Below, piece by piece: positions 48,046 to 48,235 of a stretch of 64,000 bases of DNA (position 1 is the first letter of the stretch; each line of letters starts with the position of its first letter). Location: positions 40,961-104,960 of the forward strand of contig JAZKFV010000005.1 in assembly GCA_040386195.1 (NCBI GenBank), read 5' to 3'. Source of the stretch: Pseudomonadota bacterium. Lineage in GTDB: Bacteria > Pseudomonadota > Alphaproteobacteria > Rickettsiales > UBA1997. The position numbers and the translations under genes were made by a program. A model generated the notes under the pieces. It was not told where the DNA came from and made no database searches. It saw only the letters and a list, made by a program, of their open reading frames with translations.

Positions 48046-48082
48046 ATTTCAATTGTTTTAAAAGCAAAATAAAGGCGATAGT
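48046..48082. other. 3'-flank arm of the long inverted repeat bracketing the 16S gene (putative pre-rRNA processing stem)
   Basis: ATTTCAATTGTTTTAAAAGCAAAATAAAGGCGATAGT is the exact reverse complement of 49822..49858. The complementarity resumes at 48188..48190 (GCG) after the B4 insertion. Confidence 0.75.
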
Positions 48083-48088
48083 AACAAA

Positions 48089-48168
48089 AGTCGTAAGTCG
48101 TTAGTCGTAAGTCGTAAGTAAAACCGAGTTCGGAATGACTTACAACTTACGACTAACGACTGGCGACT
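48089..48168. repeat. Family B heptamer hairpin element, copy B4 (inside the 16S flanking stem)
   Basis: Sequence is AGTCGTAAGTCGTTAGTCGTAAGTCGTAAGTA-AAACCGAGTTCGGAA-TGACTTACAACTTACGACTAACGACTGGCGACT. It is flanked by direct repeats AAAGGCGATAGT at 48071..48082 and 48176..48187. Confidence 0.88.
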
Positions 48169-48235
48169 CTTATGTAAAGGCGATAGTGCGTGTTTTGTAA
48201 TGAGAAAATTACCGAAGTAAAATTCTAACATTTTT

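Follow-up and report, generated by a model that had tools for sequence, protein, structure and literature searches.

In Escherichia coli rrn, the RNase III processing stem of the 16S rRNA is formed by leader and trailer (reviewed in PMC8708148). Here, we describe a helix of comparable position around the 16S rRNA gene on a 64-kb stretch of DNA (the window), its complementary segments lying some 90 nt before and some 45 nt after the mature sequence. The window is metagenome-assembled genome (MAG) sequence and derives from a Rickettsiales-like alphaproteobacterium that is uncultured and has a stand-alone 16S rRNA gene. The 3′ strand of this helix is interrupted by a 92-nt hairpin of heptanucleotide repeats, a copy of the repeat family B, which is bracketed by a 13-nt direct repeat. 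Like the E. coli stem, the helix is long, shows compensatory changes and lies in a flank that is absent from the mature RNA. Unlike in E. coli rrn, the gene stands alone, with no tRNA or 23S rRNA gene after it. The helix, whose cleavage by RNase III is presumed, also differs in its unusual length and perfection (37-40 bp), and in its 3′ strand a hypervariable side hairpin is enclosed by a conserved duplication of 13 nt. The initial annotation of the window had taken this duplication for the target-site duplication of a mobile family B element. Comparison with the trailers of related lineages indicated that the duplication is the older of the two.

Small palindromic repeats comprise the miniature inverted-repeat transposable elements (MITEs), the Correia/NEMIS, ERIC and REP/BIME sequences and the Rickettsia palindromic elements. 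The element of the window genome resembles them in being short, palindromic and dispersed, in being present or absent between relatives, and in forming a hairpin if transcribed. Unlike these repeats, it has no attributable target-site duplication and no defined termini beyond its heptamers, its arms are tandem repeats, and orthologous copies change their unit between lineages. With the Rickettsia palindromic elements it shares that related arrays are found in frame inside genes (nadD in the window genome, an SDR gene in the relative L258), and we know of no Rickettsia palindromic element with tandem-heptamer arms. A second point of comparison is provided by heptanucleotide simple-repeat arrays, of which the cyanobacterial STRR sequences are one type.

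Among the long simple repeats of prokaryotes, heptanucleotide units are the commonest, and the expansion of their arrays has been ascribed to polymerase slippage (Mrazek et al., 2007, as reported in PMC4679880). TAACTGA repeats were described upstream of start codons in Beggiatoaceae, Cyanobacteria and Bacteroidetes (MacGregor, PMC4679880). The arrays of the window share with these systems the tandem 7-nt units, the mostly intergenic position, the patchy distribution over phyla and a dependence on orientation: one orientation is found shortly before start codons (as for 4 arms of the window), and only the reverse one reads open. In contrast to the TAACTGA repeats, their unit is AGTCGTA, one copy lies in a pre-rRNA flank and not before a gene, and many copies consist of two inverted arrays, whereas MacGregor found one inverted repeat only (PMC4679880). 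The hypervariable helices of rRNA spacers (D1-D1′, V2/V3 and box-B of the cyanobacterial internal transcribed spacer) are also removed hairpins, free to vary and frequent hosts of repeats; unlike these, the branch described here is bracketed by a conserved duplicated stem segment. The intervening sequences of 23S rRNA (PMC4990558) are likewise removed, variable hairpins. An assignment of the element to this class was rejected, since its position is outside the mature rRNA, with a start 62 nt past the 3′ end of the full-length 16S match. A literature search on palindromic elements in rRNA processing stems yielded nothing specific.

The leader-trailer helix and the hairpin in its 3′ strand

The Rho protein encoded downstream of the 16S rRNA gene was found 100% identical to NCBI MES2677121.1 from a "Pseudomonadota bacterium" MAG, and close Rho homologues were labelled Rickettsiaceae or Rickettsiales bacterium, several of them originating from freshwater metagenomes. 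A stand-alone 16S rRNA gene is the arrangement of the Rickettsiales. No tRNA gene (ARAGORN) and no 23S rRNA gene (Rfam) were detected in the 64-kb window, the 16S rRNA gene being the sole match above gathering score. The locus consists of the following features:

49819..49858, minus strand: leader (5′) strand of the helix, ATTTCAATTGTTTTAAAAGCAAAATAAAGGCGATAGTGCG, ending 87 nt upstream of the mature 5′ end (inverted repeats)
48236..49732, minus strand: stand-alone 16S rRNA gene (Rfam RF00177, 1550 bits, model positions 1-1533)
48199..48231, minus strand: small conserved hairpin (AUGUUAGAAUUUUACUUCGGUAAUUUUCUCAU) between the 16S 3′ end and the helix, predicted in every cofold
48175..48190, minus strand: proximal trailer (3′) strand, CGCACTATCGCCTTTA, 46 nt after the mature 3′ end, holding direct-repeat copy 1 (48175-48187)
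48083..48174, minus strand: 92-nt heptanucleotide-repeat hairpin (family B copy), arms 48086-48127 and 48130-48171, loop AAAACCGAGTTCGGAATG
48046..48082, minus strand: distal trailer (3′) strand, direct-repeat copy 2 (48070-48082) followed by TTTTGCTTTTAAAACAATTGAAAT
46417..47934, minus strand: rho, which follows the 16S trailer as the next gene and served as anchor for orthologous loci

Using repeat searches, 48046-48082 and 49822-49858 were found inversely repeated over 37 nt and 48175-48190 and 49819-49834 over 16 nt, both with 100% complementarity, in agreement with the coordinates of the perfect inverted repeat annotated around the gene; the annotated positions proved correct throughout. 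The same searches found TAAAGGCGATAGT directly repeated at 48070-48082 and 48175-48187. As read from the sequence, a continuous 40-nt perfect complement of 49819-49858 resulted only when the 105 nt at 48083-48187 were deleted, which comprise the family B hairpin plus the second copy of TAAAGGCGATAGT, as the annotation had stated. This 13-mer occurred 3 times in the window, the third time in the leader strand, compared to 0.04 occurrences expected at up to one mismatch.

The arms of the hairpin form an imperfect 42-nt palindrome of tandem AGTCGTA/AGTCGTT and TACGACT units (repeat search), and Tandem Repeats Finder gave a period of 7 with 3.6-5.7 copies per arm for the arrays of the window. As RNA, the 92-nt element folded into one long hairpin of -55.5 kcal/mol (z = -11.2 versus shuffles). 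A search of positions 47850-48300 against Rfam at a permissive threshold yielded nothing above threshold except the 16S end, and a sub-threshold match to a microRNA precursor (22.9 bits versus a gathering score of 70) was read as the generic match of a long hairpin. The element follows CCTTTAC, and TTAC was considered as an IS200/IS605-like target; this was dropped, as other copies are found without TTAC.

As the gene order dapD - 16S - rho is conserved, Rho homologues were used as anchor, and the orthologous 16S flanks of 9 other lineages were fetched. The resulting orthologous loci carry L-codes; L002, L003 and L250 are three independent assemblies of the closest relative of the window genome. 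With DapD as anchor, only a 3-kb Logan contig was retrieved, which stops before the 16S rRNA gene, and scanning of metagenome contigs with the 14-mer GCACTATCGCCTTT gave at least 120 loci; those listed were all chance matches, and none had stem context.

A long leader-trailer helix was found in all relatives compared. The leader strand was kept in L002, L006, L004, L255 and L258, and differences were compensated in L252 and L255/L258. In L252, an A-U pair was changed to G-C (leader GGCGATAGTGC and trailer GCACTATCGCC to GGCGGTAGTGC and GCACTACCGTC), and in L251, L254, L255 and L258 a G-C pair was changed to A-U (leader CAATTGT and trailer ACAATTG to CAATTAT and ATAATTG), while the L004 helix contains two G-U wobbles. 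With these two compensatory changes across relatives, the helix appears to behave like a processing stem, as had been proposed. The comparison showed it to be clade-conserved over 37-40 bp, and it has the position and form of a classical RNase III-type processing stem. The arms of the small hairpin at 48199-48231 co-vary among the relatives as well (TTTTAC/GTAATTTT, TTTGAC/GTCAAGTT and CCAAC/GTTGG). Just downstream of the helix 5′ strand, the leader contains the boxA antitermination-like motif GCTATCTCTTTATTT (about 49785-49805, minus strand), which is present in all relatives.

Relative age of the duplication and the hairpin

The trailers of the relatives fell into three groups:

First group (L004/L005, L252/L253, L261): a single continuous 3′ strand, e.g. 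CGCACTATCGCCTTTGTTTTGCTTTTAAAACAGTTGAAAT in L004
Second group (L002/L003/L250, L006-8, L251): ACTATCGCCTTTA twice around a short spacer
Third group (L254, L255-7, L258-60): the same two copies of ACTATCGCCTTTA around 61-, 58- and 56-nt spacers, respectively

The empty site predicted from the annotation was present in relatives, with an uninterrupted stem of the 40-bp type in the first group. In the six element-free lineages with the duplication, spacer lengths of 17, 18, 18, 56, 58 and 61 nt were observed, and the heptamer hairpin was found in none of these spacers. The short spacers (C plus TTTTATCTATAGTAAAGA in L002, C plus TTAATTATGGTAAAGA in L006 and CTTTATTTGGTGAAGGGC in L251) were mutually related, each of them forming a mini-hairpin of CTTTAC, loop and GTAAAG that takes its 5′ arm from the last bases of repeat copy 1. 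The L258-60 spacer consists of three tandem mini-hairpins. In the window genome, two copies of ACTATCGCCTTTA were found with the same boundaries as in the relatives, here around the 92-nt hairpin, which sits where the relatives have their 17-61-nt spacers. At the 16S trailer, the heptamer hairpin was confined to the window genome and absent from the sister lineage L002/L003/L250 and from every other relative compared, so that its lineage specificity was borne out.

On a neighbour-joining tree of the single gene product Rho, the window genome and L002 were sisters (98.9% identity over 466 ungapped columns; 89% for the rho DNA), with duplication-bearing lineages on both sides of the pair. Because six element-free lineages, the sister included, carry the duplication, and such lineages lie on both sides of this pair, the 13-nt duplication was shown to be older than the heptamer hairpin, as judged from its distribution over the compared loci. 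By the same comparison, the hairpin was shown to have taken the place of an 18-nt spacer once the lineages of the window genome and of L002 had separated.

These results modify the annotated insertion into an ancestral stem. The continuous stem in relatives and the gain of the element in the lineage of the window genome were retained; the duplication was not made by the element, since the same copies surround unrelated 17-61-nt spacers in the six element-free lineages. Flanking duplications, expected at other family B copies, were equally missing: none was detected in 18 other two-armed hairpins (2 from the window and 16 from other genomes, among the matches listed). In these, the longest word shared between the 22-nt flanks measured 2-7 nt and was not located at the hairpin ends, and the 16S copy was the only one of 19 two-armed hairpins with a shared flank word of more than 7 nt. 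Target-site duplication is not a property of the heptamer-hairpin class, and the site, which had been considered the clearest evidence for mobility of family B, gave no support for cut-and-paste transposition with a staggered cut. As the duplication predates the hairpin, this site can give no evidence on the mode of movement of the repeats.

When the seven lineages with the duplication were aligned, 0/16 sites of the proximal copy, 1/13 of the distal copy and 2/25 of the rest of the distal strand were variable, compared to 13/47 columns before the proximal copy and 54/66 after the helix. The segment GCACTATCGCCTTTAC in the proximal trailer strand was invariant in all seven. From this alignment, both repeat copies look constrained, and both would be able to pair with the leader.

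Several observations speak against this order of events or complicate it. The Rho tree places the duplication-free L004 next to the window genome and L002, inside the duplication-bearing group, and with this placement the number of duplication gains and losses is uncertain. A G common to L004 and L252 (CTTTGTTTT) corresponds to an A in L261 and in the lineages with the duplication, and the stems of L004 and L261 may be either primitive or secondarily reduced. The spacers of the window genome and of L002 have nothing recognisable in common beyond the first base, and the replacement is flush with both repeat copies, which would also fit a loss of the duplication with later re-insertion. Inspected by eye, neither end of the element showed convincing traces of the L002 spacer, whichever orientation was considered. 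All compared sequences, including that of the window, are metagenome assemblies. Finally, a block of the 16S rRNA gene of about 300 nt (about 48930-49230, alignment columns about 500-800) showed 79-92% identity to every relative, while the remaining gene was 100% identical to L002, and L002 and L004 were 96-100% identical inside the block. This block may reflect a chimeric assembly or recombination; the trailer was untouched, with flanks matching the relatives.

Explanations for the hairpin in the trailer

On balance, we consider it probable that an old duplication in a clade-conserved processing stem gave rise to a hypervariable side branch, which was later occupied in the window genome by the heptamer hairpin. 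In part of the clade, the helix 3′ strand carries the old 13-nt duplication, its copies enclosing a spacer that folds as a side hairpin. This spacer is free to vary, amounting to none, 17, 18, 18, 56, 58, 61 or 92 nt depending on the lineage, and the site might tolerate anything that folds into a side arm. The hairpin may have arrived as a copy of another one, through a template switch at the old mini-hairpin, or by insertion and later erosion of the 18 old bases; of these, copying into the old spacer with loss of its 18 nt appears the likeliest.

In cofolds of leader and trailer, every lineage formed a 36-37-bp helix of the leader with the distal copy, then the branch hairpin and then 4 bp (GCAC) with the proximal copy, and the precursor is accordingly modelled as a three-way junction. 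Since the mini-hairpin of the relatives takes up the end of the proximal copy, the distal register is 3-7 kcal/mol more stable in them. The two pairing registers of the window genome were found about 1 kcal/mol apart, and the long helix is predicted to remain with the element forming its own arm. The annotated branched or alternative-register stem thus agrees with these folding models for the window genome. During 16S maturation, the flank, hairpin included, would be discarded with the processing stem. As the hairpin folds on itself in these models, the 37-bp helix still forms and the flank would be discarded, the element is probably a tolerated passenger, neutral or nearly so. A more active role is doubtful: the 13-nt copies might be selected for a two-register helix, either as a 13-bp sliding junction or as a kinetic folding switch, with initial pairing of the proximal copy and its subsequent displacement by the distal one, and with the branch as preferred landing site for clade-wide, genome-homogenised heptamer hairpins. 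If this were true, a trans-acting factor recognising heptamer hairpins would be implied.

One rival explanation is an ancestral hairpin. The heptamer hairpin would have been inserted once, together with the 13-nt duplication, in the common ancestor of the lineages that bear the duplication, degenerated into short or scrambled spacers in most of them, and been kept and homogenised in the window genome. Heptamer hairpins do persist with changed units at two other loci, rho-SDR (window genome versus L258) and holA-prfB (window genome versus L006), the loop of the L258 rho-SDR copy resembles that of the 16S copy, and TAAGCGTAAGCGAAG within the L255 spacer and ACTTCTG...ACTTGTG within that of L254 could be decayed units. 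However, the spacers of L002, L006 and L251 and the 3′ part of those of L254 and L258 are related to each other by the CTTT...GGTAAAGA mini-hairpin and are unlike the ends of the element. Together with the short spacer of the sister lineage and the lack of a duplication at any other copy of the class, this makes an ancestral hairpin unlikely.

Growth in place, by slippage of a seeded heptamer and inverted duplication without import, would be in line with the L258 spacer, which evolves by local tandem duplication, and with the slippage thought to expand heptanucleotide arrays (Mrazek, 2007, as reported in PMC4679880). The AGTCGTA/AGTCGTT units are, however, shared with three other arrays of the window genome, the loop AAAACCGAGTTCGGAATG resembles those of the rho-SDR copy and of L258, and no seed heptamer was found in the spacers of the relatives; we regard such an origin as quite improbable.

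The transposition of family B into an intact 40-bp stem in the lineage of the window genome, with a staggered cut leaving a 12-13-bp target-site duplication, is suggested at first sight by a palindrome bracketed by a perfect 13-nt direct repeat, by the 40-nt complement restored upon its removal, and by the continuous stems in three relatives. It is nevertheless very unlikely, with the duplication present at the same boundaries and element-free in six lineages including the sister, and no flanking duplication at any other two-armed hairpin of the class; the model would require a precise loss of the duplication in the ancestor of the window genome and, after it, the gain of an identical one. An assembly artefact, in which the repeat was mis-assembled into the trailer, is hardly credible: the deviant 16S block of about 300 nt, with the remainder identical to L002, suggests some chimerism, but on both sides the hairpin passes into unique trailer sequence identical to that of the relatives at every base, a k-mer assembler would not be misled by a repeat of just 13 nt, and three other copies lie in ordinary intergenic or genic contexts.

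The heptamer class in the window and in other genomes

In the 64 kb of the window, 4 arrays of the AGTCGTA type were found, with 0 expected by chance. Besides the 16S copy, these are:

46341..46413, no strand assigned: two-armed family B hairpin, which fills the rho-SDR spacer; its loop is moderately like that of the 16S copy
56082..56190, no strand assigned: two-armed family B hairpin between the divergent genes holA and prfB, its arms ending 5-7 nt before the start codons
30653..30687, minus strand: one-armed AGTCGTA array in nadD, translated as LVVSRKSLVVSR

The rho-SDR hairpin is absent in L004 and L251 and has an orthologue with different units in L258 (L258:4495-4574), a two-armed hairpin of AGTGGTA/AGTTGTA units with complementary arms and a loop resembling the one in the 16S trailer. 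Orthologous to 56082-56112, L006 carries a one-armed GGTGGTA array before holA (L006:1390-1413). The exact two-unit motif AGTCGTAAGTCGTA was absent from the loci of the first nine relatives. These comparisons suggest that orthologous arrays persist while their units change, by turnover or homogenisation in place. An interpretation of the nadD array as recent in-frame insertion was rejected, as relatives have the same length and similar peptides (LVVSRESLVVSR, EVISHKSLVVSR); within this array, one AGTCGTT unit avoids the TAA stop of a pure array. Related or similar arrays were also observed at 31691-31727 (ACTTACA) and at 28894-28930 (TAATGAT/TAATGGT, period 7, 5.3 copies), the latter adjoining AGAGTCGTAGC.

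The start codons of holA, prfB, SDR and a carboxylase gene at 31736 follow arms in ACTTACG orientation at a distance of 5-9 nt. At these four heptamer-preceded starts, no obvious Shine-Dalgarno sequence was seen (56077-56200, 46332-46340 and 31691-31735). The 16S copy itself is outside this start-codon pattern.

A scan for AGTCGTWAGTCGTWAGTCGT (three AGTCGTW units), using one genome per species, yielded at least 120 loci compared to about 4 by chance, the latter figure being our own estimate from the database size. The loci were distributed over Cyanobacteria, Bacteroidota, Chloroflexota, Acidobacteriota, Omnitrophota, Patescibacteria, Gammaproteobacteria, Planctomycetota and others. Among the matches listed, many were intergenic arrays and some consisted of two inverted arrays; a long open reading frame (ORF) started within 40 nt downstream of 42/122 arrays in ACGACT orientation versus 16/122 in the opposite one. 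An AGTCGTA hairpin very like that of the window genome was found next to a tRNA-like sequence in a MAG labelled "uncultured Rhizobium sp." (L011:5701-5774), whose contig is AT-rich and may be mis-binned. Family B is a local variant of this widespread heptanucleotide-repeat class and not a classical MITE.

Some further observations concern the neighbourhood of these arrays. Upstream of the leader, two sites are promoter-like by consensus matches only:

50074..50101, minus strand: TTGACA, 16 nt, TATATT (11/12 consensus matches)
49924-49953, minus strand: second, weaker promoter-like site (9/12 consensus matches)

In the SDR gene (45480-46331, minus strand), the loop after NPAI is a hot spot of in-frame insertion. 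There, the window genome and L255 encode an extra stretch of about 30 aa, CHPERSEGS...EILRCTQDD, typical of a translated palindromic repeat, L258 has the heptamer-coded SRKSLVISQ, and L004 has neither peptide. The rho-SDR spacers of L254 (L254:1750-1915) and L255 (L255:4461-4593) contain a different palindromic element, GCCGTCATCCCGATGTAAAT...ATTTACATCGGGATGACGGC, preceded by TTGGTAAGTTGGTAGTC. The prfB gene was split by the ORF finder (start 56198, second frame from 56253) because of a classical +1 frameshift site, CTTTGAC at 56264-56270 with GGGG before it.

The AGTCGTA arrays, many of them long hairpins and many placed shortly before start codons, are found in this uncultured Rickettsiales lineage as in numerous other phyla and extend the description of the TAACTGA repeats. 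What looked like a textbook insertion with target-site duplication turned out to be an old stem duplication once relatives were compared. The discarded flanks of a stand-alone 16S rRNA would offer a safe site for hairpin repeats, and the two duplicated segments, which are as conserved as the paired stem itself, may have a role in folding of the precursor.

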